Source of the DNA: a virus
Reading direction: 5' to 3' (one strand)
Length of the DNA: 16,873 bases
Virus record (IMG/VR): IMGVR_UViG_3300045988_013970
Span: 1 to 16,873 of that record
Part shown: positions 1,245 through 16,216 of the stretch, piece by piece
How positions within the stretch are numbered: the first letter of the stretch is position 1
Layout of the letters: each line of letters starts with the position of its first letter
Notes under the pieces: generated by a model
Database searches by the model: none
Told to the model about the DNA's origin: nothing
The model's input: only the letters and a program-made list of their open reading frames with translations
Translations under genes and position numbers: made by a program

Positions 1245-2312
1245 TTATTTTCCTAACAGTTCACCTATGATCAGTCCAAAATCGGCCTTTACCTGCGAAT
1301 CGTCAAACCTTATTTTACCTAGTCGATAGCCGGTGGTGAGTCGTCGTATGATATCGTCTGATTTTTTGACGTACCAAGTGTGTTCGTCTACATGGTTGGG
1401 GTCTAACGTGTAGACGGGTCTAGTGTTGTCTTTGGGGATGCGTCGTGAAACGTGTTGTGAAACACGTCCGTCACGTTCGGACATGGAAACCCAAATACCG
1501 AAACGCGCATAGTCCGTAGTGTCCAGCACGTAGGAGAGTTCGCCGTCGCTCGGTATTGGCGCTAGCAACGTGTCCGATTCATCACGGAACTTGTTTTTGA
1601 TCGCATAATCCGCATAATCGCCATCGTATTGTTCCAAGAATCTGCCAAATTTCGACTGTGCGACTTTTGCCGAGAATCCGCCATAGTCAGCCAGTTCGAG
1701 ACAAACGAATCCCCCGCAGTAGAGTTTGTATTGTTGCTGGTTTTGCTGTTGTGCTCCAATGTCCAGCCGGTATTTCGCGAAATATGGGTTAGCTTTTTGC
1801 ACTGCATTAGACAAGAATAGTACTTTTGTTCTATCCTGCCACCTGTCTACCGTATTATAGAACTCGCTGAACGAATTTACTTCATTGCTGAGGAACCGTA
1901 GGTTGTCTGGAAAAATCTCGTCAAAAATAATGAGATGCACTTTAGGATAGGCGACTGACTTCAAGCCGCCCGCCTGTGAGAGTGCGACGAAATAACAGCA
2001 TGTGCGCCAGTCCTTTTCATCCCATGAAGTCTTATGAATCTGCCCCTTTTCGCCATTTACTCGAAACTCGTAGGATGGGAAGAACTCTTGAATATCCTTG
2101 AAGAATGTCTCTTTTCGATGCTGTTCCACGTCGGTACGCCTGAGATAGATGAACTCGTGACCATGCTTGATGTATTCCTTGATGCCGTATCGTTTGGCGG
2201 CGAACGTTTTGCCGAGGCCGCGTGCGCCGATCACGAAATTCCATGACGCGTTTCGGGTGAGCAGATTATGCAGATCATAGTAATCATCTTCAGCCAATGT
2301 CTGTAATGCCAT
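1245..2312 (-). CDS. DNA encapsidation (packaging) ATPase, phi29 gp16-like
   Basis: Alignable by eye to phi29 gp16. Walker A NFVIGARGLGKT (phi29 NFVIGARGIGKS), FIYLRR (FIYVRR), Walker B HLIIFDE (TIVFDE), LSNAVQKANPYF (LSNAVSVVNPYF), C-terminal GKIRFDD (GYLRFDN). GGAGGTG RBS. Confidence 0.92.
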   Translation of the reverse strand: MALQTLAEDDYYDLHNLLTRNASWNFVIGARGLGKTFAAKRYGIKEYIKHGHEFIYLRRTDVEQHRKETFFKDIQEFFPSYEFRVNGEKGQIHKTSWDEKDWRTCCYFVALSQAGGLKSVAYPKVHLIIFDEIFPDNLRFLSNEVNSFSEFYNTVDRWQDRTKVLFLSNAVQKANPYFAKYRLDIGAQQQNQQQYKLYCGGFVCLELADYGGFSAKVAQSKFGRFLEQYDGDYADYAIKNKFRDESDTLLAPIPSDGELSYVLDTTDYARFGIWVSMSERDGRVSQHVSRRIPKDNTRPVYTLDPNHVDEHTWYVKKSDDIIRRLTTGYRLGKIRFDDSQVKADFGLIIGELLGK

Positions 2313-2438: not shown

Positions 2439-3650
2439 TTAGAATGCGGGCGGATTCGATTTTCCATCCCACACGCTGAGTAGAGAGTACGCCTGATTGT
2501 AGCGATTCGTGTACGGCTGGAATGGGTAGGTGGCGAGAATATTGGCCTTGAGCTGTGCGAGGTTTGACGCTTTCGGTATCTTGAGCGCGTTCGCGGGGGA
2601 CTGGTGGTATGCAGTGACCCACAGTATTTGCATTTTATCATCGTCGTACTGCTGCGGGTATCCGGCGTAATCTTCGGCAAACTGTTTGCGCTGTCCCTCA
2701 TGGGATTCACTTCGTGCCGCCCATGTCCGGAAGGCCGTCGCTTCCGCCTGGGTGAGGTTTCTTGTAAAATCCCCTCCGCTCTCCATTAATGCGGCGATCT
2801 GCGGGGCGGCGTTTTTGAATGCCGCGTAGCCGGTTGGGTCTGCCGCTTTCATGGCATTCAACACTTGCAAACGTCTGCCGAAGCTCCATTGGGCAATGCC
2901 AACACCCTGCAAGTTGGCCGCTTCTACTGCATCCCAGCGCAAACCGGCTTCAACTGTGCCAATCACGTATAAGGCGTACGAGTTTTCCGGTGACGTCGAG
3001 CTTGACGGGTGCCCTTGTCCTTGCGAGTCGGACGGTTGCGGTTGTGACGCTTTTTCCGAAAAATTATTGGCGGTGGTCTTGTAAAAGATACGGGTTCGTA
3101 CTCCGCCGTTATCAGTCTCATGCAGATACAGGTTGTCGCCCTGCCAATGGATCCATGCCCCGCCCCGTTTCGTGCCTGGGTTCCCCTGATTGTTGTCACC
3201 GGTGGGATTATCCACGTCCGGCTTAGGCATGGTACGGGGATGTAAGTAGCCTAACAGTCCGTCGATCGGAAACCATTTGAGCGCGCTTGCGTCAGGATTC
3301 TGTGTGATCACGTAGACATTCCCATCCTTCACGCCGTCGCCCGCAACTATCGCCACATGAGTGTAGGGAGTGTAGGTGGCGTACCCCCATATTGCCACGT
3401 CCCCTGCTACTGGCGAGTACCCGTCCGCTGGAATGCGCTCGTACACCTGTTCGCACCGCGTGGACACGGGATATGACGTATATAAGCCGCCCGCATAACC
3501 GGTAGGGGTAATACAGTCTTGGATGCTCATACCGTACATGTCCATACTGTATTTTGCCCATAAGTCCCAGCATTGCGCGCCATACGCCCCGTCCATGTCC
3601 CAAAAACGGTTTTTCGTCTGGTCAATCCATTGCGCAAAAGTAATAGCCAT
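2439..3650 (-). CDS. Virion-associated peptidoglycan hydrolase: N-terminal CHAP domain plus C-terminal phi29 gp13-type lysozyme-like domain
   Basis: N-terminus WDMDGAYGAQCWDLW...THVAIV is a CHAP paralogue of the endolysin. The C-terminus has GTVEAG...GVGIAQWS and WVTAYHQSPANA, resembling the gp13 lysozyme blocks MQSES...GFGLVQWT and FLASYERPANP. The position after the fibre gene matches phi29 gene 13. Confidence 0.8.
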   Translation of the reverse strand: MAITFAQWIDQTKNRFWDMDGAYGAQCWDLWAKYSMDMYGMSIQDCITPTGYAGGLYTSYPVSTRCEQVYERIPADGYSPVAGDVAIWGYATYTPYTHVAIVAGDGVKDGNVYVITQNPDASALKWFPIDGLLGYLHPRTMPKPDVDNPTGDNNQGNPGTKRGGAWIHWQGDNLYLHETDNGGVRTRIFYKTTANNFSEKASQPQPSDSQGQGHPSSSTSPENSYALYVIGTVEAGLRWDAVEAANLQGVGIAQWSFGRRLQVLNAMKAADPTGYAAFKNAAPQIAALMESGGDFTRNLTQAEATAFRTWAARSESHEGQRKQFAEDYAGYPQQYDDDKMQILWVTAYHQSPANALKIPKASNLAQLKANILATYPFQPYTNRYNQAYSLLSVWDGKSNPPAF

Positions 3651-3697: not shown

Positions 3698-5197
3698 TTA
3701 CCACGCTACAGTAAAACCGCCCCCCATCAGACCGTTGGGGGAACCATGGGCACCGGTTGTGGTGTATGGTTGGATGCCGAACGTGCCGCTAACATGATCG
3801 TCAGACCCCAACACCTTAAACAGGGTGGCCTCGTTCGCACCGTTGGATGCCATGAGTGCCCATGCGTCCGGCTCGTTGGTGGTGTCCTTGTCGCGTTCCG
3901 CCCATTTAGGTAGAGCGTTTTTAACGTCCACGAAATTGGCGGCAGTGACGTTACTGGCGAGATGCCAGCCGAACGTCAGAAGCCCCCCCGAAGCGTTGAC
4001 GGTGAACAGTGCGAGAGTGTTGGTCGAGTCGCGCCACGAAAACGACTCCGTACGCCCCGTGTAGTTATGATTGATGTAATCAAGCATGTAGCTTACGATT
4101 ACGTTGGTTCCGTCCGCGTTTGGGTGTATGTCGCCGGTGGGGAAATAGGTGTTATTGCCTAGATTCCATGTCCAAGCCCATGGCACCGCTTCCACGCCGA
4201 CCTCTCGGGCGGCGGAAATACAGGATGCGGAATTGTACCGCCAATAATTTGATACTGGCGTCCAGTCCCATAGCATGGGTACTACAATGATTCGAGCGTT
4301 TGGAAACTCGCGTTTAACTCCCTCGTATAGGCTTGCTGCGGCGGTGCGCAATGTGCCCGAATACCCATCGTTGGTGTTGCGGCTTCCTGCGATCACCACT
4401 AAGCCGACTTCATTGTGGTTGTAGCTGATGTCCGCTTTTGCGTTGTTGAGTTCGCTTTGAAAGGTGGTGTTTGGCGCGGTGTAGCCGGCTCCTGTGATGC
4501 AGTAATTGTGTAGCAGGCTGTCTTCGCCCAGTCGGGTATTAAGTACGGTCGGCCACTCTCGTGTCTTATCCGTATTTGTGCCGTACGAGTCTCCAAAAGT
4601 GACCAAGTGCCCGTTAGTGCGTGAGAGAGATCTAAGGATTCGAGCGATAGCGTCGTTTGCGATGGTTGCGTCCGTTCCCGCTTTGTCCCACTTGGTTTTA
4701 TTGGCGGTGGCGTGCGCTGCGGTGTCCGCGCCGAGTGCGGTGAGAATCGCCGTATTGGAATTGGCTTTTTGAGTGGCGGTGGCGGCGTCTGCCAGTGCTT
4801 CGATAGCGTCCGTACCCGCTTTATCCCATTTCGTCTTATTGGCGGTGGCGTGAGCGGTGGTGTCTGCGCCGAGCGCGGTAAGAATGGCGCTATTGTTGTC
4901 GGCCTTGATTGCTGCGGCGGTCACGTCCGTAGCCGCTTTATCCCATTTGGTTTTCGCAGCGGTGGCATTATCCACCGTGTTATCCACAAGCAACGCTTTC
5001 ATGACCGCTTCATCATGCGTTTCTCGGGCTTCCACGCCTTCAATGCGGTTCAGGTGTTTTTCGAGAGTATCGTCAATGGTGCGCATCGAACCGTTGTAGC
5101 CGTCCCTCAGGTCGGCGGGGTCACCGTCCCCGTACAGGTTCAAGCCATAATTATCAGTCTTGGTGTAAGTGGTCCTCATTTTTACAGCTACTTTCAT
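3698..5197 (-). CDS. Tail fibre / appendage protein with SGNH (GDSL) esterase domain
   Basis: SGNH blocks: LVTFGDSYG (block I, aa about 198-206), VVIAGSRNTNDG (blocks II/III), PTGDIHPNADG (block V, DxxH). The N-terminal motif NLYGDGDPADLRDGYNGSMRTIDD is shared with ORF 5282..5446. There are 2.5 tandem 40-46 aa repeats. Position is equivalent to phi29 gene 12. The start could be M1 (5197) or M7 (5179). Confidence 0.8.
   Translation of the reverse strand: MKVAVKMRTTYTKTDNYGLNLYGDGDPADLRDGYNGSMRTIDDTLEKHLNRIEGVEARETHDEAVMKALLVDNTVDNATAAKTKWDKAATDVTAAAIKADNNSAILTALGADTTAHATANKTKWDKAGTDAIEALADAATATQKANSNTAILTALGADTAAHATANKTKWDKAGTDATIANDAIARILRSLSRTNGHLVTFGDSYGTNTDKTREWPTVLNTRLGEDSLLHNYCITGAGYTAPNTTFQSELNNAKADISYNHNEVGLVVIAGSRNTNDGYSGTLRTAAASLYEGVKREFPNARIIVVPMLWDWTPVSNYWRYNSASCISAAREVGVEAVPWAWTWNLGNNTYFPTGDIHPNADGTNVIVSYMLDYINHNYTGRTESFSWRDSTNTLALFTVNASGGLLTFGWHLASNVTAANFVDVKNALPKWAERDKDTTNEPDAWALMASNGANEATLFKVLGSDDHVSGTFGIQPYTTTGAHGSPNGLMGGGFTVAW
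4652..4969 (-). repeat. In-frame tandem repeats (about 2.5 copies of a 40-46 aa unit) inside the tail fibre gene
   Basis: The protein reads ...NATAAKTKWDKAATD...NNSAILTALGADTTAH / ATANKTKWDKAGTD...SNTAILTALGADTAAH / ATANKTKWDKAGTD.... The DNA copies are clearly related but diverged, for example gctttgtcccacttggttttattggcggtggcgtg versus gctttatcccatttcgtcttattggcggtggcgtg. Confidence 0.9.
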
Positions 5198-5994: not shown

Positions 5995-6807
5995 CTAGTG
6001 GCCGAGATTATAGGCGAGTGACGTGGAATACAATTGTGGTACGTTGGTCATATTGTCACCACTGCCCCACATGCCCAAAAATAAGTCTTCCAACGAATTA
6101 ATTACCATCATGTCAATATTGAGCATGGTGTTACGCCAGTCCTGCAAGAGCTGTGATTGTGACCCGCTGGTTCCGATCGTATGCGATACGCTATTACCCT
6201 TGTCCGAAGAGTGCGCGTAATCCGTGTTGCTGGTACTGGACGCGGTGGCCGAGCTTTCCTGCTGCGTGCTGGTATGCGTATTGCCTAGCGAGTCTGTCTG
6301 CGAAGCGCTCGTGGCAAACTGTTTAAAATCGTCAATACGAGTCTGCGGAAACTCGCTGTTGAACGTCATGCTGGAATTGTCCGCCTTGGTGTCGGACGTA
6401 CTGTTTGCCGTGGACTCGTTCGACTGCGTGCCCGAAGATCTGCCCGAAGATTCGTTGATGCTGGTCGAGTCCATGGTCTGATTGACGTCTGACGTGATGA
6501 AAGGGTCGAACTTGCGTTGTGCAGATAAATATAATTGGTTGAAATAGTCCATTTGTTCGCGCATGGTACGCCCAAGGTAAAAAATGAACATTTGCGGGGT
6601 TTCGCTGCCGATTTCGCGTAGTGCGTAGTGTGCTACGATTTTTTCGTTCAATTTCGCGCGATATGCTTCGTCGAAAATCGGATAATATTGCGAACTCAAA
6701 TGTAGTTTTTCGTCCGTGTTGAATCCACGGTCGATAAGATTACCCAACGTCAACGTATAATCGGCCATGCTGTCTTTGATGGCGTACATGCTCAAATCTT
6801 GTGCCAT
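5995..6807 (-). CDS. Lower collar protein (phi29 gp11-like)
   Basis: Start taken at ATG 6807, overlapping the portal stop as TAATG and preceded by AAGGAGG. The N-terminal pattern YPIFDEAYRAKLNEKIVAHYALREIGSETPQMF...MDYFNQLY is typical of picovirus lower collar proteins as I recall them. It has a long Ser/Thr-rich central region. At 270 aa it is close to the 293 aa of gp11, and its position after the portal matches. Confidence 0.72.
   Translation of the reverse strand: MAQDLSMYAIKDSMADYTLTLGNLIDRGFNTDEKLHLSSQYYPIFDEAYRAKLNEKIVAHYALREIGSETPQMFIFYLGRTMREQMDYFNQLYLSAQRKFDPFITSDVNQTMDSTSINESSGRSSGTQSNESTANSTSDTKADNSSMTFNSEFPQTRIDDFKQFATSASQTDSLGNTHTSTQQESSATASSTSNTDYAHSSDKGNSVSHTIGTSGSQSQLLQDWRNTMLNIDMMVINSLEDLFLGMWGSGDNMTNVPQLYSTSLAYNLGH
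6007..6012 (-). promoter_or_regulatory. Possible -10 element TATAAT inside the 3' end of the lower collar gene
   Basis: The minus strand reads TCGCCTATAAT, the same 11-mer as at 3657..3667, 44 nt upstream of the 175-aa gene start. It may be chance. Confidence 0.25.
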
Positions 6808-7745
6808 TATTCTTCCTCCTTGTTGCCTTCCACATCCAGCAAACCACCGCTGGTGGTGTCGTTCCATTCGATGCCGATAGGGTATCCCGAGTCAGCCATT
6901 TGCGGCCACAATCGGTTAATCGTATCGCACGCCTGCTGACGGGATTTCAGATAGCTCAGGCGAAACACGTTCGTACGGCTGTTTCCAGCCGTCACTTCCG
7001 ACTCAAGCAACCGTTCCTTCTTTTCCGTCGTGCTGTTATCAATGCCCAGATAGTTGACAAGTTCATTCCATATTTGCGTTTTCGTCGTGATGATTTTGTC
7101 CGCCAAAAACGGGGTGACGTTGGGGAATGTCTGGAACATGCCGGTAATGTCCGCAGAATCATACGCGTAAATGTACGGATCGCCGTCTTCTCGCGCTTTC
7201 ATGAGATTCTGGGCGGTGAGCTTGTTGGTTTCGGATGTGGCGATAATCAATGGAACGCTGATATTATCCAGATTCACATCCAAAGCACGGTCTGCGACAG
7301 CCAATCGCGTGGCATAATTCCACATGACATCAATCATCGTACACCTTAATTGATTATCCCAAATCGGTACGCACTTTTTCGAGCCAATCTGAGGGTGCGA
7401 ATAATTGGTTGCCACCGGCTGAAAGCTGGTCGGGTTATTGTAATTATTCACACCGCCAATATTGCCGGACGTGACCATAAAACGGTTTACCCCCTTGCGC
7501 TTGTCGGGGAAAAACAAGGCTAAGCCGTTCTCAAAAAGGGTCAATTCCAAATATCTTTCATCGATATATGGCGGTAGATTCACCCATTTGAATCGGCTTA
7601 CTGCCAGCATTTCAATAAGTTTCATGTATTGGTTGATTCGCAATGATTGCCGCATTTCGGGTAGATTCAGGTTGCCCCACATAGAGCCTAAAACGCTTTG
7701 GTTGTCCCAGTGTGCGGCCTTGCGTGCGTTATTGCGTTTACCCAT
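6807..7745 (-). CDS. Portal / upper collar connector protein (phi29 gp10-like)
   Basis: KWVNLPP (phi29 FEWENLPP). IWNELVNYLGIDNSTTEKKERLLESEV...YLKSRQQACDTINRLW versus phi29 [27 protein letters not shown]...FLKSREEACEKINELY. Start chosen at ATG 7745 (RBS AGGACGG 8 nt upstream), giving 312 aa against 309 aa for gp10. Confidence 0.92.
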   Translation of the reverse strand: MGKRNNARKAAHWDNQSVLGSMWGNLNLPEMRQSLRINQYMKLIEMLAVSRFKWVNLPPYIDERYLELTLFENGLALFFPDKRKGVNRFMVTSGNIGGVNNYNNPTSFQPVATNYSHPQIGSKKCVPIWDNQLRCTMIDVMWNYATRLAVADRALDVNLDNISVPLIIATSETNKLTAQNLMKAREDGDPYIYAYDSADITGMFQTFPNVTPFLADKIITTKTQIWNELVNYLGIDNSTTEKKERLLESEVTAGNSRTNVFRLSYLKSRQQACDTINRLWPQMADSGYPIGIEWNDTTSGGLLDVEGNKEEE

Positions 7746-7763
7746 GATCACCGTCCTAAACAT

Positions 7764-7794
7764 AATGGAGAGAGTTTTCTTGACTCTCTCCATT
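7764..7794 (-). promoter_or_regulatory. Perfect 12-bp hairpin between the tail knob and portal genes
   Basis: AATGGAGAGAGT / ACTCTCTCCATT with the 7-nt loop TTTCTTG. On the minus strand it is followed only by ATGTTTAGG, a weak U tract. A TATAAT hexamer (7792..7797) overlaps its upstream arm. Confidence 0.5.
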
Positions 7795-10108: not shown

Positions 10109-11824
10109 TCAGGCCGAAACGGTAATCTGTGCAACGCCAGTTTCCCCAGCAAACTTTGCGGTGACGTTGGCAGCGCCTGCGTCGGTTCCGGTCAGTACGC
10201 CATTTGGGGTGATGGTTGCGTGCCGGTCTACCGACCACATGGCGAGATTGGTCACGTCCGCCTTATTGCCGTCAGTCTTGGTGGCAATAGCCTTGAGCGC
10301 GGTATGGCCGTTGACCTTGACCGTCTTTCCACCCTGAATCTCAATTGATTCAATGGCTCCAGTCTTCCAACCTCCCAGCCATTCGCCCACCACTGGCACG
10401 GACAGTGCGGCGGAAACCGTCTGATCGATCTCAGGCGTGGCCGGATTGATGTAGGTGGCCTGAGCCGTGACCTTGAGGGATTCGGCGGTTTCGTCAAGGC
10501 CGCACCGAAGGATACCGTCGTTATCGATGGCGGTAAATTGCGAGGTTGCGCCCTCAACCTTGTATTCGATGCCGACCGGCTGGAACGAGGCCTCGGCCTT
10601 ATTTGCGCTCGTAATTTCGGACGCCACCTGCACCAAATCACCGCGCGACACGTTTTGGGGGGTGATGGAGGGCTGACCGTACTTCATGACGCGCAAGGTA
10701 AATCCCGGCTTCGAGGTGGTGAGCGTATCCGGCAATGTCACGGACTCGCTGGAACCTTCGCCCGTCCAAAACAGCACGGCATTAGCAAACGGGTTAGGGG
10801 TAATCGAACCGCGATGCTTGTAGAAAATGTTGCGAGTGCCGTCAATCGGGTTCACTGGGGAGTTCGTGGTTTCCAACATTTCATCCCAGCAGAAAAAGAA
10901 GTCTTCGGTGGTCAGCACGGCCTGAACCTTGCCGCCGGCACCGCCAATGCCGAACATGTCTTCGGGGATAGGAATAATGCGATACGGGACATTAACCTTG
11001 TCGATGTTGAACGCGGCGGCGAGGGCTTCGACGTTGAGTGCTGCGATCACCTGAGGGGTTGCAAAAAGGATTGCTTCCGAGTCGCGCCATGGGGTGACCC
11101 AGCTCATGGCGTTATAGCGTGGCATGGCTGACATTGGGCTAGCCTTGAGTTCGTTCGCAGTCTGCTGGATGAGACGTAGCAATCCTTTTGCGTCCGCTTC
11201 CGTGGAATCGGCCGCGCCCACGTCCGCCGTATGGACTCGATAAAAACCGCCCTTACGTGCATATTCTGCGAAACACTGGGTTTTCATAACATACATATCG
11301 TTCCTATCCGAGAGGATAGGCGCGTTCATGATCTCGGAAATATAATCGGACATGCCACTTTCGCCGTCGAACGCCGTGAGCAAGGCATCTTCCGGAATAG
11401 TGACCGGATAGTAATGGTCGAACGTAAGTGGATGGAATACAGATGTGGTCGGGAGCGAGTAGCGGCCATACACGTCATCACCCAAGTACTCCTTGTTAAA
11501 ATTACGGGTTCGTGCCTTGACCAAACCGACTGCGGCCTGTTCGTAAGTAGAGCCGTAACGCTTCAAGGTGCGGGGTGAGCCGATAAGCTTCAACGGGTCA
11601 TCCCAATCAGCGTGCTGAATGTACAGACCGATAAGACGCTGAATCAGCACACCGGTAAATTCATCACGCAAATATGGGAAATTGCGCATGGTGTCCACCG
11701 CGTTGCGAATATTGCCTTGCGTAGCGCTTGGAATACGAGTCTGGAACTGGGGAGAGGTGGCGTTGCGCACGGCGTTGAAAATCTCAACATCACCCTTACC
11801 GGCCAATGGTCGAATATTGGACAT
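10109..11824 (-). CDS. Major capsid protein (phi29 gp8-like) with two C-terminal Ig-like (Big_2-type) domains
   Basis: Blocks EIFNAVRN...IPSAT, VIAALNVEALAAAFNIDK and FANAVLF match phi29 gp8 DIVNAIRN...VPLAT, LEAELDVDVLAKAFNMNR and FANAVAF. The C-terminal 190 aa or so shows Big_2-like patterns (LKVTAQATYINP...; VNGHTALKAIATKTDGNKADVTNLAMWSV...ITPNGVLTGTDAGAANVTAKF). Confidence 0.9.
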   Translation of the reverse strand: MSNIRPLAGKGDVEIFNAVRNATSPQFQTRIPSATQGNIRNAVDTMRNFPYLRDEFTGVLIQRLIGLYIQHADWDDPLKLIGSPRTLKRYGSTYEQAAVGLVKARTRNFNKEYLGDDVYGRYSLPTTSVFHPLTFDHYYPVTIPEDALLTAFDGESGMSDYISEIMNAPILSDRNDMYVMKTQCFAEYARKGGFYRVHTADVGAADSTEADAKGLLRLIQQTANELKASPMSAMPRYNAMSWVTPWRDSEAILFATPQVIAALNVEALAAAFNIDKVNVPYRIIPIPEDMFGIGGAGGKVQAVLTTEDFFFCWDEMLETTNSPVNPIDGTRNIFYKHRGSITPNPFANAVLFWTGEGSSESVTLPDTLTTSKPGFTLRVMKYGQPSITPQNVSRGDLVQVASEITSANKAEASFQPVGIEYKVEGATSQFTAIDNDGILRCGLDETAESLKVTAQATYINPATPEIDQTVSAALSVPVVGEWLGGWKTGAIESIEIQGGKTVKVNGHTALKAIATKTDGNKADVTNLAMWSVDRHATITPNGVLTGTDAGAANVTAKFAGETGVAQITVSA

Positions 11825-11842: not shown

Positions 11843-12121
11843 TTAGTCGAACAAATCTTCGATGGAATCGCCGTCGCCGTCGCCGTCATTATCATTGTCG
11901 GACGGGGTAAGGTCATTATAGCCTAGCGTATCCATCATGGCCTTGAGTGCGGCCAATTCCTTTTCGATGCCGTCAAGTCGCACGCTTACGTCCGGCTCCT
12001 GTTTCGGTTCCGGTTCCGGTTCTTTCGGCTTGACTTCATCGTCCACGGTTTCGGTCTGCCGTTCCTCTTCGGTCGGCGGTGGGGTAGTGTTTTCCTCGCC
12101 GTCATTATTCGGGTCTGCCAT
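11843..12121 (-). CDS. Highly acidic 92-aa protein, scaffolding protein candidate (phi29 gp7 position)
   Basis: Immediately upstream of the capsid gene. By my count about 30 Asp/Glu against 7 Lys/Arg. It has a PEPEPEPK stretch, a short central helix-like segment (LDGIEKELAALKAMMDTL) and a DNDNDGDGDGD tail. AAGGAG RBS 6 nt upstream. Confidence 0.55.
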   Translation of the reverse strand: MADPNNDGEENTTPPPTEEERQTETVDDEVKPKEPEPEPKQEPDVSVRLDGIEKELAALKAMMDTLGYNDLTPSDNDNDGDGDGDSIEDLFD

Positions 12122-12156
12122 ACAAAACTCCTTACGTCGGTAGTGTTTCCGCTAAA

Positions 12157-12165
12157 ATTATATCA
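12157..12165 (-). promoter_or_regulatory. Candidate late promoter, extended -10 TGATATAAT
   Basis: The minus strand reads CCATATGATATAAT, located right after the terminator at 12173..12205 and 36 nt upstream of the scaffold ATG. The -35 is weak (TCATTT). Confidence 0.6.
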
Positions 12166-12172
12166 TATGGCG

Positions 12173-12205
12173 AGAAAATAAATGACCCCGCAATCACGCG
12201 GGGTC
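12173..12205 (-). terminator. Intrinsic terminator ending the early/replication transcription unit and the candidate sRNA
   Basis: The minus strand reads GACCCCGC-GTGATT-GCGGGGTC followed by ATTTATTTTCTC. The stem is 8 bp with 7 G:C pairs, the loop is 6 nt, and a U-rich tract follows. Confidence 0.85.
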
Positions 12206-12340
12206 TAGCCGTCCTATCAGAGCGCAAAGGTGATAATCGTAGGGCGCTACCGCCACGATAGCAAATCACGGTCGGCGGCATTCTCAGCCGAGGCAGTCCA
12301 ACCTGTGTCATTCCCAGTCGAAAATCGACGCTCACAAGAC
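12173..12340 (-). ncRNA. Candidate structured small RNA of about 165 nt (possible packaging RNA, pRNA)
   Basis: Bounded by its own extended -10 (12348..12356) and the terminator. It is GC-rich with several possible stem-loops. It occupies the same relative position (after TP and polymerase) as the pRNA gene of phi29. The only ORF across it (12132..12470) runs through both the terminator and the next promoter. Confidence 0.45.
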
Positions 12341-12347
12341 AATATAT

Positions 12348-12356
12348 ATTATAGCA
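12348..12356 (-). promoter_or_regulatory. Candidate extended -10 promoter TGCTATAAT overlapping the DNA polymerase stop codon
   Basis: The minus strand reads ATGGTTATGCTATAATATATATTG. The same 9-mer TGCTATAAT occurs at 14860..14868. No convincing -35. Confidence 0.45.
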
Positions 12357-13800
12357 TAACCATTGTCCCGTAATCATCCTGCACCTGTATGCCATGGCGG
12401 AATTGCTCATACGGGATAGGCTGTGAAAACATGTTGCCCGCCATACAAACGTCAACGTCACCGTCATCACGCCACCCCTGATACCGGTTCATCCCCAATA
12501 TCGTAAGCTTTTCGTATCGTGCGGCGATTTTCCACTTTCCAAGCTCGGTCGGATGTATCTCGCATGATCGCACGGGCTCCCAACCGGATAGGATGCACCC
12601 ATCCGTGTTCGCGTACAAGAGTCGGTCTGCGTTTGCATGACAAACGTCCATAAGTTTGCGACGCGCATAAGCGTTGACCCATACGGGCACGGGGAGAAAG
12701 TCGGTTTTCAAATTCGATTCCTCACGCTGCGCAATATCCCAGTCGAGGGTGATACCGTCTCGCGAGAGTGGAAGCATGACGGCACCTTTGGGTAGACTCG
12801 CCATTTTCCCCACAAGCGCGTTCATAATCAGTTTTGCCATCTGTCGTTTCTCACCCGTCGCCTTCTGTTTTAGTTCGCCCCATTCATCGATGAACGAACG
12901 AAAAAAGCCCTTACTTCGGCGGAACTTCCATCCCCTTACGTGCCGATATATGCTCACCTCATAATTCTCGTAGAGCAGTTCCTGGTCAATGTCAGTGAGT
13001 ACGCGCGTAATATAACCGCGAGTGGAGGTGAGTCGGTTCAAGCCGTAAATACTGCGGTTGTCGAGCAGAAAGGGGTATCCGTTTGACTTGAGTTCCGCGC
13101 GAAACGTGAGTTCGTCGCAGTGCAACGGCATGTCGTTATCTTGCTCGTATTTGCCTTCGTATGATTCGGGTTCGCCCCATGGGAGCCATTCGTTTCGCAG
13201 AATGCTCGGATACATGGAGTTGCAGTCAACGTCAATGGCCTTGTCATATGCCCCTTCTTTTGCGGTCATGAATCCGCCAACATAGGCGTCATGCAGTGAC
13301 TTTTTAGCTTCGGGTTCCAACTGTGGGAATTTATCGTAATACCATTTCCACTCACCTGCCACGAACGCTTCCATACTCGCACCGCCTGCCGTAATCTTAC
13401 ACAGGCCACGGGTATCGTATTCACGCAGAATATTGAGCAGTTGCGTGTCGGTCATAGTGAGTCGGCAGTTTTCGCGCAAAAGATTTGATATGTCGAAAAA
13501 TCGTGCGGAATTGTTACGGTCGATACGCACCGTGAAGCTGAAAAATTTTCCCTTTTTGGACACTATGGCATCCCAGCTCAGGTTAGCGTTATGCTCGTTA
13601 TGGGGGAGTGAATGCACGACATGAGCCATAAACGGGTCCAGCCATTCGGGGTCAGTCACATAGACGGCGAGCTTACCGCCCGACATGATGGACGCCAAAA
13701 GGCGATTAGGTACGGTAACGTCACGTAGCATAGTGCCGTCCGTAAAGCGTATGACATTATCCGCACACCATAATCCCACTCTACTGTTGCTCACCGTCAT
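12349..13800 (-). CDS. Protein-primed family B DNA polymerase (phi29 gp2-like), compact at 483 aa
   Basis: Exo I YVTDPEW, Exo II NLSWD, Exo III region TMTDTQLL. GLCKITAGG (phi29 GLDRMTAGS) and AYVGGF (AYRGGF). Motif A DVDCNSMYP. LPWGEPESYEGKY (LPYGEPIVFEGKY) and FIDEWGELK (FIDKWTYIK). Motif B KLIMNALVGK and motif C LLYANTDGC. RBS AAGGGAAG. Confidence 0.93.
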   Translation of the reverse strand: MTVSNSRVGLWCADNVIRFTDGTMLRDVTVPNRLLASIMSGGKLAVYVTDPEWLDPFMAHVVHSLPHNEHNANLSWDAIVSKKGKFFSFTVRIDRNNSARFFDISNLLRENCRLTMTDTQLLNILREYDTRGLCKITAGGASMEAFVAGEWKWYYDKFPQLEPEAKKSLHDAYVGGFMTAKEGAYDKAIDVDCNSMYPSILRNEWLPWGEPESYEGKYEQDNDMPLHCDELTFRAELKSNGYPFLLDNRSIYGLNRLTSTRGYITRVLTDIDQELLYENYEVSIYRHVRGWKFRRSKGFFRSFIDEWGELKQKATGEKRQMAKLIMNALVGKMASLPKGAVMLPLSRDGITLDWDIAQREESNLKTDFLPVPVWVNAYARRKLMDVCHANADRLLYANTDGCILSGWEPVRSCEIHPTELGKWKIAARYEKLTILGMNRYQGWRDDGDVDVCMAGNMFSQPIPYEQFRHGIQVQDDYGTMVML

Positions 13801-14871: not shown

Positions 14872-15309
14872 TCACTTGGTTTCCTGATCGTCCACCGGCT
14901 CAATGCTGAAAAACTTGAAACCACGACGAGAACGGCGTTCCACTACCTTGATAGCCAATGGCGCTTCCCAAGTGTTCGGGGTTCCGAAGATGCCGAACAT
15001 GGTGTTCAGTCCCGCGGCGAGAGTGGGGGAGGTGGCGGCGTACGCCTTGTTATCATCGGTCACGATGATGACACGCACGGTGTTGGAGATTTCGCCCGTC
15101 TGATCGTCCGTGACTTGTACGGCCTGTGCGACTGCGTTCACCATGTTCAACGGTTCGTTGAGGTGTTCGTCGAGCTTTTCGGCGTTCTGCAATGCCGAGT
15201 AGAGCTTGATCTTGCCTTCGCGGGTGGAAGTGTCGATAAAATGCTGGACAGTACCGAGTTCGGTGGATTCGGTGCTGAATGCGACAAGTGCGGTGTTAGC
15301 GTTTTCCAT
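14872..15309 (-). CDS. Single-stranded DNA-binding protein candidate (lactococcal phage ORF34-type SSB-like)
   Basis: The pattern KLYSALQN...LNEPLNMVNAVAQAVQVTDDQTGEISNTVRVIIVTDDNKAYAATSPTLAAGLNTMFGIFGTP..W..PLAIKVV resembles the phage SSB family found in lactococcal and streptococcal phages, as I recall it. Its position before TP and polymerase matches phi29 gene 5. RBS AAGGGAAGG. Confidence 0.5.
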   Translation of the reverse strand: MENANTALVAFSTESTELGTVQHFIDTSTREGKIKLYSALQNAEKLDEHLNEPLNMVNAVAQAVQVTDDQTGEISNTVRVIIVTDDNKAYAATSPTLAAGLNTMFGIFGTPNTWEAPLAIKVVERRSRRGFKFFSIEPVDDQETK

Positions 15310-15706: not shown

Positions 15707-16216
15707 TTATAGCAAGATTTTTTGCAATTCAATATCATTATAACGTGTCGTGTCCAGTCTGTCAAAATTTTTAAACACTGCAATGATAAGATTTTGAGCT
15801 TGTGGACTATCAAAGATCGTGCAGCAATCATATGACGTGCACCCTTTGACGGCGCAGACGGCGCACCATGCAATCAGATTAGGCGGGTTGATGGTACCGT
15901 CCAAATATTCCACATCATACGTTCTGGATAGGGCGGCGGAAAAACCGTCCGATATGGTCATGGTACCGCAGATCTGCGACACCGTTATCACCGCTTGCGT
16001 AAACCATGCGCTAACCCCGTCGCGCCACAGTTCGCACAGCATGTTCACCGCCCTGCAGCATGATTCATAATCGCCATAGCCCATGTCGTACCGTTTCAGA
16101 TTCAACTCACGTTTCCGACCCCTCGTAGCCTTGACAATACGAGGACTCTCCATGATGGCGTCATCAAACCGGCGCAGTCGATATATTGGCGTGCGGTCAT
16201 CCCCACGGTTAAACAT
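15707..16216 (-). CDS. 169-aa Cys-rich early protein, unknown function
   Basis: The ATG at 16216 overlaps the upstream stop by 8 nt, with GAAGG/GGTGG purine-rich RBS. The N-terminus is basic (RGRKRELNLKR). Cysteines are clustered (SCCRAVNMLC, WCAVCAVKGCTSYDCC). No family recognised. Confidence 0.6.
   Translation of the reverse strand: MFNRGDDRTPIYRLRRFDDAIMESPRIVKATRGRKRELNLKRYDMGYGDYESCCRAVNMLCELWRDGVSAWFTQAVITVSQICGTMTISDGFSAALSRTYDVEYLDGTINPPNLIAWCAVCAVKGCTSYDCCTIFDSPQAQNLIIAVFKNFDRLDTTRYNDIELQKILL
15737..15765 (-). promoter_or_regulatory. Perfect consensus sigma-70/sigma-A promoter TTGACA-17 nt-TATAAT
   Basis: On the minus strand TTGACA lies at 15765..15760, the spacer gactggacacgacacgt is 17 nt, and TATAAT lies at 15742..15737. 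It is embedded in the last 20 codons of the 169-aa gene, about 40 nt upstream of the next start codon. Confidence 0.7.

Follow-up and report, generated by a model that had tools for sequence, protein, structure and literature searches.

The stretch of viral DNA analysed here (IMG/VR record IMGVR_UViG_3300045988_013970, 16,873 nt in full; hereafter the window) belongs to a phi29-like Bifidobacterium phage and is 82% identical to phage BP1. Its packaging ATPase and portal are of the gp16 and gp10 types, respectively, according to both Pfam and PHROGs, as the initial annotation had assumed, and Pfam identifies in addition Phi29_MCP, the phi29 SSB and the gp9 tail knob. Translation of the portal likely starts at M17, which would give the protein the basic N-terminus MGKRNNARKAAHW; the corresponding end of phi29 gp10 reads MARKRSN. 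In phi29, the gp16-type ATPase docks on the packaging RNA (pRNA).

Between the polymerase gene and a gene in the position of the scaffold lies a gap of 227 bp (12122-12348), which is indeed the largest of the genome, as initially described: the second largest measures 126 bp (2313-2438), and all others are of 70 bp or less. All signals of the gap, together with the structured RNA that it contains, are read on the minus strand (Table 1).

Table 1. Features of the gap, of its flanking genes and of the packaging motor (window coordinates)
Feature	Position	Strand	Remarks
Packaging ATPase	1245..2312	-	Pfam Podovirus_Gp16, 153 bits, profile positions 6-319 of 331
Portal (connector)	6807..7793	-	Pfam Phage_connector (GP10), 139 bits
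Scaffold-position gene	11843-12121		92 aa; edge of the gap
Start codon ATG of scaffold-position gene	12119-12121	-	
Ribosome-binding site AAGGAG	12128-12133	-	ahead of the scaffold-position gene
P2, second extended -10 promoter	12157..12165	-	TGATATAAT; serves scaffold and capsid genes
Intrinsic terminator	12172..12205	-	GACCCCGCG-UGAU-UGCGGGGUC; 9-bp G+C-rich hairpin (12184-12205) and U-rich tail
Structured core, 130 nt	12211..12340	-	pRNA domain I-like; terminal helix closing a three-way junction
A-like helix, 3' strand	12211..12244	-	contains the nearly invariant GCCCUACGAU
D-like hairpin	12245..12263	-	UGCUAUCG-UGG-CGGUAGCG; 3' strand abuts the A-helix 3' strand, no linker
D loop and closing base, UGGC	12252..12255	-	partner of bulge GCC(A/U)
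C/E arm	12268..12306	-	C helix, bulge in the 5' strand only, E hairpin
C helix, 8 bp	12298-12306 with 12268-12275	-	4-9 compensatory sequences per pair
E hairpin, 4 bp	12287-12290 with 12276-12279	-	CGGC/GCCG; nearly invariant
E-like loop, UGAGAAU	12280..12286	-	family consensus UGARAAY
CE-like bulge, ACUGCCU, 7 nt	12291..12297	-	3' end GCC(U) (12291-12294) complementary to the D loop
A-like helix, 5' strand	12313..12340	-	GUCUUGUGAGCGUCGAUUUUCGACUGGG; partner 12211-12244
P1, extended -10 promoter	12348..12356	-	TGCTATAAT; overlaps polymerase stop TAA (12351-12349)
Polymerase gene	12349-13800		edge of the gap

The sequence elements proposed as transcription signals in the initial annotation are all present where it placed them. 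P1 lies across the stop codon of the polymerase, and the 5' end of the RNA is predicted at ~12342-12340. In 131 of 132 related loci, a TGNTATRAT box precedes the structured core by 4-6 nt, counted from the start of our model, a conservation for which the polymerase codons in the same stretch could partly account. The intrinsic terminator that follows the structured stretch is the single minus-strand terminator-like site of the whole window, and its stem covaries (CCCCGCG/CGCGGGG versus CCCUCCG/CGGAGGG). It is conserved in 131 of the 132 loci, as are P1 and P2; P2, preceding the ribosome-binding site, takes the form TG(A/G)TATAAT and lies within noncoding DNA. The terminator makes up the 3' domain of the RNA, at the position of domain II of pRNA.

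We built a covariance model of the gap element (R1), which matches the window at 12203-12342 with 149 bits and at no second locus. Exactly one match per locus (118-155 bits) was obtained in the window and in all 85 relatives, which were fetched via the capsid protein, and this match is always flanked by the polymerase gene on one side and the scaffold gene on the other. The element is also present in 49 further gut-metagenome contigs; two other contigs (L140 and L156) among the 51 metagenome pattern matches are chance matches in which the RNA is absent. Overall, standard pairs form in 97.9-98.1% of the pair cells, in comparison with only 31-52% in slid controls; across 82 distinct sequences, the values are 97.9% (n = 3442) and 32-51%. 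Conserved and covarying structure, which the initial annotation suggested looking for in the gaps of related genomes, is evident: compensatory changes occur at 19-20 pairs, and the count of 20 is reached by none of 500 shuffles. A z-score of -2.8 was obtained for the minimum free energy.

The common fold is a three-way junction with paired 5' and 3' ends, again among the features proposed for inspection. The five segments of the A-like helix are 99-100% paired, with changes from G:C to A:U in nine sequences and from U:A to C:G in four. The C/E arm carries no bulge on its 3' side, and the E-like loop is unpaired and conserved in alignments A3, A5 and A7. The D stem (7-8 bp) is paired in 100% of the sequences, with compensatory changes in five of its seven pairs (e.g., CUAUCG/CGGUAG versus CCGUCG/UGACGG). 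The individual helices drawn initially fared less uniformly. The pairing AGCGC...GCGCU is correct and covaries. The hairpin GUCGA-UUU-UCGAC is ambiguous, its outer pair being broken in 9 of the 82 sequences, exactly those in which the long-range partner covaries. The helix CUUGUG/CACAGG and the 8-bp helix UGCCGCCG/UGGCGGUA both give way to covarying pairings with better support, namely the C helix, the E hairpin and a local D hairpin (CUAUCG-UGG-CGGUAG).

Two complementary loops had also been anticipated, and they are found at the positions of the CE bulge and the D loop. The complementarity GCC(A)/(U)GGC is maintained by covariation, at positions equivalent to those of phi29. In alignment A7, pair 56:105 is G:C in 66 sequences, G:U in 10 and A:U in 6, and unpaired in none; at pair 58:102, 76 sequences have C:G and the other 6 have U:G. 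The switch from G:C to A:U at 56:105 occurred in five independent lineages, each time on a U background. True covariation is limited to one of the four loop-loop pairs in the Bifidobacterium-phage family, and its 3' partner could alternatively close the D hairpin; this rival pair (column 100 with 105) is, however, an A-C mismatch in three sequences, whereas the loop-loop pair has no mismatches. The window's own contact comprises only 3 bp (GCC/GGC), the fourth pair being a U-U mismatch. When bulge and loop were shuffled, complementarity in single sequences was not significant (P = 0.09-0.36, with 0.01-0.8 as the widest range obtained), and phi29 itself gave P = 0.24. Because this test is weak even for phi29, we take the covariation, and not complementarity as such, as evidence.

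The curated Rfam model of pRNA (RF00044) does not match the window at its gathering score, nor the region 12050-12450 at E ≤ 10, whereas phi29's own pRNA, used as a positive control, scores 145 bits. The curated model thus does not place the element in the family. This agrees with the earlier remark that primary-sequence similarity to phi29 pRNA is lacking, and neither RF00044 nor R1 points to a different locus in the window that could encode a pRNA. We also tried a home-made descriptor (C helix, bulge, E and D hairpins, loop match and flanking duplex), which picks the right site in phi29, the window and BD811P2 and also dozens of false sites per genome, and is therefore useless as a test.

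Although sequence similarity between the two RNAs is undetectable, their architecture is parallel in detail. The window RNA measures 169 nt and phi29 pRNA 174 nt; both consist of a structured domain of ~120-130 nt, a linker and a 3' hairpin, the 174-nt pRNA also ending in a hairpin and U tail. Their dot-bracket strings follow one layout, running through the A helix, the C helix, a bulge in the 5' strand only, the E hairpin, a short linker, the D hairpin, a second linker and the terminator hairpin. In both, the two ends of the domain pair as the A helix and close a three-way junction, the 3' strand of the E hairpin is continuous with the C helix, the D hairpin sits against the A-helix 3' strand, and the D loop can pair with the last bases of the bulge. 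Dimensions are similar for the C helix (8 bp in the window versus 9 bp in phi29), the bulge (7 versus 9 nt) and the E hairpin (4 bp in both, with a loop of 7 versus 6 nt). The differences concern the junction linkers (6, 4-7 and 0 nt in the window's family versus 1, 3 and 0 in phi29), the A helix, split into five short segments in the window's family unlike that of phi29, and the contact itself, GCC(A)/(U)GGC versus AACC/GGUU. Since the D loop of the window RNA has only 3 nt, its contact uses the D closing base. In phi29, function requires complementary CE and D loops, and one CC:GG pairing suffices (PMC5066667, PMC12670572).

Both phages encode the gp16 ATPase together with the gp10 connector. 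The gene order had been described as that of phi29, and this is accurate insofar as the RNA follows the polymerase, is encoded on the strand of the polymerase and stands behind its own promoter (A1 in phi29); four small ORFs intervene in phi29, however, whereas the window gap adjoins the polymerase gene. The locus is at the end of the phi29 genome, but in the middle of the window's, between the replication and structural modules. The host of the window phage is an actinobacterium, while the phages represented in RF00044 infect Bacillus or Cytobacillus.

A second RNA family, of 110-118 nt, occupies the equivalent place in phi29-like phages of Curtobacterium (Pize, Prophecy, Ayka, Reje and others) and Arthrobacter (Anjali, Mendel, Swim), and in RHph_N3_8. 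It has the topology of pRNA, shows compensatory changes in four of its six bulge-to-D-loop pairs and carries no annotation in the records of those phages. As in the window, this soil-actinophage RNA lies downstream of the polymerase, just before the scaffold and capsid genes, and is followed by a terminator. The two families cannot, however, be aligned, and R1 does not match the second. They differ further in that a small gene separates polymerase and RNA in the soil actinophages (a ribbon-helix-helix protein in the Arthrobacter records), that the Curtobacterium phages have no separate late promoter after the terminator, and that the soil-actinophage contact is centred on a GC palindrome (UUGCA/UGCAA, CAGCU/AGCUG).

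With filters off, R1 gave no significant match to BadAztec1, Pize, Av-1, Anjali and several Av-1-like contigs; Anjali shows a weak similarity confined to the C/bulge/E motif. At the equivalent position of the Av-1-like phages and of the Microbacterium phage PineapplePizza, we observed no such RNA, which counts against a packaging role. Searching IMG/VR for relatives of BadAztec returned only BadAztec1 and BadAargau2 themselves, and in the comparison of these two, support is confined to the outer helix and the 3' hairpin. A pRNA-like model can tentatively be drawn for BadAztec; its energy exceeds the minimum by 7 kcal/mol, and its loop match is not significant.

We suggest that the element is the packaging RNA of this phage, a variant of pRNA unrelated to it in sequence. 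We estimate the probability of this interpretation at about 0.65. The fold, the covariation and the motor context argue, by analogy with phi29, for the candidate packaging RNA put forward initially, and so do the single copy per genome, the conserved promoter and terminator elements, the lack of a conserved reading frame, the synteny with phi29 and the second RNA family; the missing RF00044 match argues against it. The gap would encode a stand-alone small RNA of ~165-170 nt, probably a discrete transcript that starts from a host-type extended -10 promoter of its own and stops at the intrinsic terminator. Its first 130 nt fold into a three-way junction made of a long helix joining the two ends, a bulged arm with a 4-bp hairpin and a simple hairpin arm, whose loop pairs with three or four bulge bases. 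If, as in phi29, this pairing is intermolecular rather than intramolecular, copies of the RNA would link hand in hand and encircle the empty capsid's gp10-type portal as a ring, and the terminal helix would dock the gp16-type ATPase that pumps the protein-capped DNA. The RNA would, on the same analogy, bind proheads and be needed for packaging; the E-like loop may be linked to prohead binding, purely by analogy.

Alternatively, the RNA could act in cis as a leader of the late operon, either as a polymerase-modifying antiterminator like the put RNAs of HK022 or as an attenuator setting upstream read-through to the scaffold and capsid genes. The order of promoter, structured RNA, terminator and late genes is typical of such elements, and HK022 put resembles the gap RNA as a structured RNA placed right after a promoter, before a terminator and ahead of late or delayed genes. 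Moreover, BadAztec1, BadAargau2 and the Curtobacterium phages have ~25-35 nt from the 3' hairpin to the scaffold start; because no second promoter is visible there, the late genes of the BadAztec and Curtobacterium phages must be transcribed through the RNA, which thus forms part of the late-operon leader in these phages. We nevertheless regard a leader function as unlikely for the element described here. In the window's family, read-through is unnecessary because the terminator is followed by the conserved extended -10 promoter (131 of 132 loci), and a light test revealed no conserved or covarying pairing between a terminator arm and the core: the best such duplexes average -10.8 kcal/mol as compared to -19.3 for the terminator, occur at inconsistent positions and do not track changes in the arm. 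Rfam cis-regulatory families do not match the window gap at relaxed thresholds. The put RNAs consist of a tandem pair of stem-loops, ~70 nt in length, with neither a terminal closing helix nor a three-way junction, in contrast to the 130-nt three-way junction of the gap RNA, with its covarying bulge-loop contact and conserved promoter after the terminator.

We consider it quite improbable that the element is a small phage RNA serving some other function in trans (binding RNA polymerase, a nuclease or a defence system, or pairing with mRNA) whose likeness to pRNA is convergent. The unit does stand alone, its conserved unpaired UGARAAY and GCCCUACGAU could bind protein, and the known pRNAs share no sequence similarity with it. 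Yet the detailed match in topology, and the covariation of the contact where pRNA has its own, would then be coincidence, and a similar RNA recurs in distant phages sharing little beyond phi29-type replication and packaging modules. Rfam small-RNA families match only as terminator-like noise (isrJ, CssrB and ncr1175, in relaxed searches of the window, BadAztec1 and Pize gaps), the searches for tRNA and tmRNA were negative, and an unsystematic look revealed neither repeats nor any obvious target for antisense pairing. We find it hardly credible that the gap is a mere spacer between promoter and terminator, or a small protein gene, with no function at the RNA level. In the window, an open frame of 112 aa (12132-12470) does span the gap, but it is not conserved: no reading frame is kept in relatives, whose longest open stretch switches strand and frame, and the gap lengths fall into all three classes modulo 3 (28, 32 and 20 sequences). 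Insertions and deletions of 1-2 nt are common in the element, and its substitutions concentrate in compensating pairs.

Reports of pRNA have come from a narrow range of phages. A review from 2016 limits it to phi29 and its relatives infecting Bacillus or Cytobacillus (PMC5066667), and an Infernal survey of virus genomes from 2025 lists ~50 pRNAs, with every named phage infecting Bacillus or Cytobacillus and no mention of Bifidobacterium or Actinomyces (PMC12670572). As the searchable literature knows pRNA from Bacillus and Cytobacillus phages only, what is new here is a pRNA-like structured RNA gene in a small gut Bifidobacterium phage. Considering both RNA families jointly, we lean slightly towards the view that pRNA is an ancestral component of the phi29-type motor and not exclusive to Bacillus phages, this element and the soil-actinophage RNAs being true pRNAs that have diverged strongly. 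With the same reserve, this joint reading would add that the RNAs form rings on the portal, that abundant Bifidobacterium phages of the human gut carry them, and that they have been overlooked so far because structure and not sequence is conserved. It would further imply that in some lineages the late-operon leader is the source of the pRNA, so that the supply of motor RNA is coupled to the transcription of the capsid genes.

If this is true, the phi29-type motor has an RNA component that is old and widely distributed, and the reason why the motor needs an RNA becomes testable in independent systems. RNA nanotechnology would gain new three-way junctions and kissing modules rich in G+C, and small gut phages an annotation marker. 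The element also shows that the curated covariance model RF00044 overlooks structural relatives of pRNA. Cultivable phages are at hand, namely BP1 on B. pseudocatenulatum and BD811P1-3 on B. dentium.

The largest gap between genes in the window (227 bp, against 126 bp for the runner-up at 2313-2438) had been put forward in the initial annotation as the largest noncoding gap of the genome, holding a promoter, about 165 nt, a terminator and a second promoter. The size ranking stands within the window, and all four elements were found in that order on the minus strand (see table). A consensus scan of the whole window yielded no other terminator-like site on this strand; together with the order of the elements, this leads us to regard the layout as real. 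Relative to shuffles, the 171-nt unit folds with a minimum-free-energy z-score of -2.8, and neither tRNA nor tmRNA was found. Conservation was assessed in loci selected blindly with respect to the RNA: a capsid-protein search of IMG/VR gave 80 loci (86-96% capsid identity), to which we added five GenBank relatives. The gap sequence is present in all 85 (71-98% identity by BLAST). Our covariance model R1 (140 positions and 39 pairs, trained on 14 diverse copies) matched exactly once per locus, always between the polymerase and scaffold genes, at 118-155 bits; the exception in score is locus L021 (83 bits), whose RNA is cut by the contig end. When metagenome contigs were scanned with a DNA pattern of conserved positions only, leaving out the putative loop-loop contact, 51 further contigs were obtained, nearly all of 17-19 kb and from human-gut assemblies, and R1 matched 49 of them. 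The other two, in G+C-rich environmental contigs (L140 3927-4011 and L156 2176-2258), are chance pattern matches in which R1 finds no RNA, giving a rough false-positive rate of 2/51 for this degenerate pattern of 22 bases plus. A protein-coding reading was rejected: a 112-codon ORF spans the gap in the window, but in the relatives the longest open stretch switches strand and frame. Gap lengths among them are spread over the modulo 3 classes (28, 32 and 20 sequences), with frequent indels of 1-2 nt.

The model-based alignment of 82 distinct RNA sequences supports a single secondary structure, with standard pairs in 97.9% of 3442 pair cells. Compensatory changes occur in 20 pairs (109 cells), which none of 500 column shuffles equalled, and sliding the 3' partners by 1-3 columns lowered pairing to 32-51%; the picture was similar in the first sequence set. 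Covarying structure in the gaps of relatives, a check named in the initial annotation, is thus present, and it includes a three-way junction. The helices drawn there from one sequence fared unequally: AGCGC/GCGCU is part of the conserved fold, whereas UGCCGCCG/UGGCGGUA and CUUGUG/CACAGG give way to the E, C and D pairings. Support for the hairpin GUCGA-UUU-UCGAC is ambiguous: 9/82 sequences cannot form its outer pair, and these are precisely the ones in which a long-range partner covaries (G:C to A:U). The hairpin's inner three pairs show one compensatory case for each alternative pairing. That the gap element is a conserved, structured, noncoding RNA gene is essentially certain.

Features of the window, with the loci of the second RNA family (L-numbers denote related loci or contigs)
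Feature	Position	Strand	Remarks
Gap	12122-12348	-	between polymerase and 92-aa gene
Extended -10 promoter TGCTATAAT	12356-12348	-	overlaps polymerase stop codon
G+C-rich stretch	between first promoter and terminator hairpin	-
A-like terminal helix	12313-12340 with 12211-12244	-	five segments
Spacer	12307-12312	-	6 nt
C helix	12298-12306 with 12268-12275	-
Bulge ACUGCCU	12291-12297	-	5' strand only
E hairpin CGGC-UGAGAAU-GCCG	12276-12290	-	3' strand runs directly into C helix
Spacer	12264-12267	-	4 nt
D hairpin UGCUAUCG-UGG-CGGUAGCG	12245-12263	-	adjoins A-helix 3' strand without spacer
Linker	12206-12210	-	5 nt
Terminator hairpin	12184-12205	-
Terminator, hairpin GACCCCGCG-UGAU-UGCGGGGUC and U-rich tail	12205-12175	-
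Second promoter TGATATAAT	12165-12157	-
RBS AAGGAG	12133-12128	-
ATG of 92-aa gene	12121	-
Packaging ATPase (Podovirus_Gp16)	1245-2312	-	153 bits
Connector (GP10)	6807-7793	-	139 bits
Phi29_MCP	10109-11824	-	Pfam/PHROGs
Type-B DNA polymerase	12349-13800	-	Pfam/PHROGs
phi29-type SSB	14872-15309	-	Pfam/PHROGs
gp9-like tail knob			Pfam/PHROGs
Second-family RNA loci	L087 3937-4110; L161-L167; L168 690-799; L169 831-940; L170 662-771; L173 886-996

The Rfam Phage_pRNA model, RF00044, recovers the phi29 pRNA at 145 bits but has no match in the window, and relaxing the threshold to E<=10 for the gap by itself changed nothing. By this curated test the RNA is therefore outside the family; that primary sequence would show no similarity had been anticipated when the search was proposed. 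The topology is nevertheless identical when the dot-bracket strings and the RF00044 consensus are set side by side. The phi29 pRNA (174 nt) and the window RNA (169 nt) are closed by a 5'/3' A helix and a 5'/3' A-like helix, respectively, and differ, with phi29 given first, in the C helix (9 and 8 bp), the bulge restricted to the 5' strand (9 and 7 nt), the loop of the 4-bp E hairpin (6 and 7 nt), the linker to the D hairpin (3 and 4-7 nt), and the D hairpin itself (6 bp with a 5-nt loop, 8 bp with a 3-nt loop). Both return directly from the D hairpin to the 3' strand of the A helix, and in both the core is followed by a single-stranded linker and a 3' hairpin with a U tail. As to gene order, the phi29 pRNA gene does have its own promoter (A1) and does follow the polymerase on the same strand, but not directly, as initially stated, since four small ORFs intervene; in the window the promoter of the RNA overlaps the polymerase stop codon.

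Neighboring pRNA molecules of phi29 are joined by base pairing between the terminal bases AACC of the CE bulge in one and the D loop (GGUU) of the other, a contact that is required (PMC5066667, PMC4201828), and a single CC:GG pairing is enough for activity (PMC12670572). The window's family has at equivalent positions a bulge GCC(A) and a D loop with closing base (U)GGC, and so the two complementary loops looked for are there. Across the 82 sequences, contact pair 1 is G:C in 66, G:U in 10 and A:U in 6 without mismatch, pair 2 is C:G in all, pair 3 is C:G in 76 and U:G in 6, and pair 4 is A:U in 73, G:U in 2 and mismatched in 7, including the window (U-U). The six A:U sequences at pair 1 form five lineages, each with G:C or G:U sequences as closer relatives than any other A:U lineage, which implies that A arose five times, always on a partner U. 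In its rival role, closing the D hairpin, that partner base makes three A-C mismatches. Only one contact pair covaries in this family, and complementarity between a 7-nt bulge and a short loop is not by itself significant by shuffling, which is also the case for phi29. Covariation support for a bulge-to-D-loop contact is real but limited, and such a contact would fit the sequence equally within one molecule or between molecules.

More distant capsid-protein relatives comprise phi29-like phages of other Actinobacteria (26-37% identity) and Bacillus phages (about 24%). Curtobacterium phages (Pize, Prophecy, Ayka, Reje, Fairywren, Thatch, Mantle), Arthrobacter phages (Anjali, Mendel, Swim) and phage RHph_N3_8 have a gap of 155-300 bp directly before the scaffold gene, with the polymerase and a small gene preceding it. 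An alignable, unannotated RNA of 110-118 nt, which begins with GUGAU and ends with UCCGAA, lies in these gaps with a terminator after it; neither R1 nor Rfam detects it. In eight Curtobacterium-type sequences 92.5% of the cells are paired and 21 pairs show compensatory changes. The pRNA-like topology recurs: a long A helix closes the three-way junction, one arm comprises a C helix, a 5' bulge of 7 nt and an E hairpin of 3-4 bp with a 6-nt loop UUGAAA or UUGAAU (UUGAGU in phi29), and the other arm is a D hairpin with a loop that can pair with the bulge. Among 12 sequences, four of the six bulge-loop pairs have changed on both sides (U:A/C:G, U:A/A:U/C:G, C:G/U:A and A:U/U:A), with contacts as different as UUGCA/UGCAA in Prophecy, CAGCU/AGCUG in Anjali and UGUUG/UAACA in RHph_N3_8. 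The small gene (L168 415-693, L169 577-834, L170 447-665, L087 3685-3936, and L088 4303-4470 in Actinomyces phage Av-1), annotated in Arthrobacter phage records as encoding a DNA-binding protein of the ribbon-helix-helix type, is a possible regulator of the RNA or of the late promoter; it is missing from the window's family, in which the RNA promoter overlaps the polymerase stop instead. Glutamicibacter phage Voltaire has a structured gap at the equivalent place (L171 870-1031).

On the combined evidence of fold, correctly placed contact, phi29-type motor, single copy in each related genome examined and parallel distant family, a packaging RNA is the best-supported reading, a predicted role to which we give a probability of roughly 65%. 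A cis-acting leader of the late genes, such as a put-like antiterminator or an attenuator, is a live alternative. It draws on the BadAztec and Curtobacterium phages, where the 3' hairpin leaves no room for a promoter before the scaffold gene, so that the RNA must share a transcript with the late genes or be freed from the late-gene leader through termination or processing. Within the window's family, however, a promoter after the terminator is kept in 131 of 132 loci and no alternative pairing with the terminator arm is conserved, and to our knowledge no antiterminator RNA has an architecture like this one. In the openly accessible literature searched, we found no paper on a pRNA in Bifidobacterium, Curtobacterium, Arthrobacter or Microbacterium phages. 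A 2024 review of phi29-like phages with BD811P1 in its dataset considers pRNA unique to phi29 and related Bacillus phages (PMC11476376), and a 2025 Infernal-based survey lists 50 pRNAs, its named phages infecting Bacillus or Cytobacillus, with Bifidobacterium and Actinomyces unmentioned (PMC12670572).

Other outgroups fit less well. The closest, the honeybee-gut Bifidobacterium phages BadAztec1 (L086) and BadAargau2 (L090), have an extended -10 element (TGCTATAGT/TGCTATAAT) over the polymerase stop, then a structured 178-bp gap (L086 12680-12857, minus strand). These two sequences support the outer helix, with two compensatory changes, and the 3' hairpin, which covaries; a tentative pRNA-like model of the gap RNA lies 7 kcal/mol above the minimum free energy. 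A possible motif in the pair, GGUG[CCGGAAACC]CGUA[UUAAGU]UACG, resembles GGG[GAUUAAACC]CUGA[UUGAGU]UCAGCCC of phi29. The 3' hairpin in these phages lacks a U tract and is not followed by a second promoter, which would place the RNA in the late-operon leader. Av-1-like contigs offer only about 90-140 bp at the pRNA-like position, and in Av-1 (L088, NC_009643.1) this gap (4471-4611) contains only a promoter, a stem-loop of about 45 nt and a terminator. The GenBank "packaging RNA" of Av-1 is annotated elsewhere in the genome (16295-16402, plus strand); it overlaps the opposite-strand ORFs C and B, its 108 nt fold weakly (-14.6 kcal/mol), and the Rfam pRNA model does not match it. The annotation looks doubtful. 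Microbacterium phage PineapplePizza has 52 bp (L172 925-976) between the gene downstream of the polymerase and the scaffold-position gene, hence no such RNA at the usual place, and any pRNA must lie elsewhere in its genome.

The window covers most of a small podophage genome (16.9 kb, every gene on the minus strand), 81.6% identical to Bifidobacterium phage BP1 across 88% of its length and 76% identical to the B. dentium phages BD811P1-3 across the conserved part. The phi29 gene set was recognized with Pfam and PHROGs (see table); the 330-aa ORF upstream of the polymerase, without a family match in either, is by its position a putative terminal protein. The longest form of the portal ORF has 328 aa (312 aa as annotated in BP1), and a start at M17 gives a basic N-terminus, MGKRNNARKAAHW, which recalls MARKRSN of phi29 gp10, a segment implicated in pRNA binding. 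The polymerase has 483 aa, few for a protein-primed enzyme of type B, and its Pfam match covers residues 137-379 only; annotated lengths differ among relatives (BP1 471, BD811P2 445 and BD811P1 483 aa), and start-codon calls are thus inconsistent between records. Within the 3' end of ORF 15707-16216 is a perfect sigma-70 consensus promoter (15737-15765, minus strand; TTGACA, 17 nt, TATAAT, 12/12 matches). The genes directly after it encode a 107-aa protein, the SSB, the putative terminal protein and the polymerase, and it may drive the replication operon. The 126-bp gap, between an endolysin-like gene (2439-3650) and the packaging ATPase gene, carries a promoter-like site at 2355-2327 (minus strand), and BP1 has a similar gap of 123 bp.
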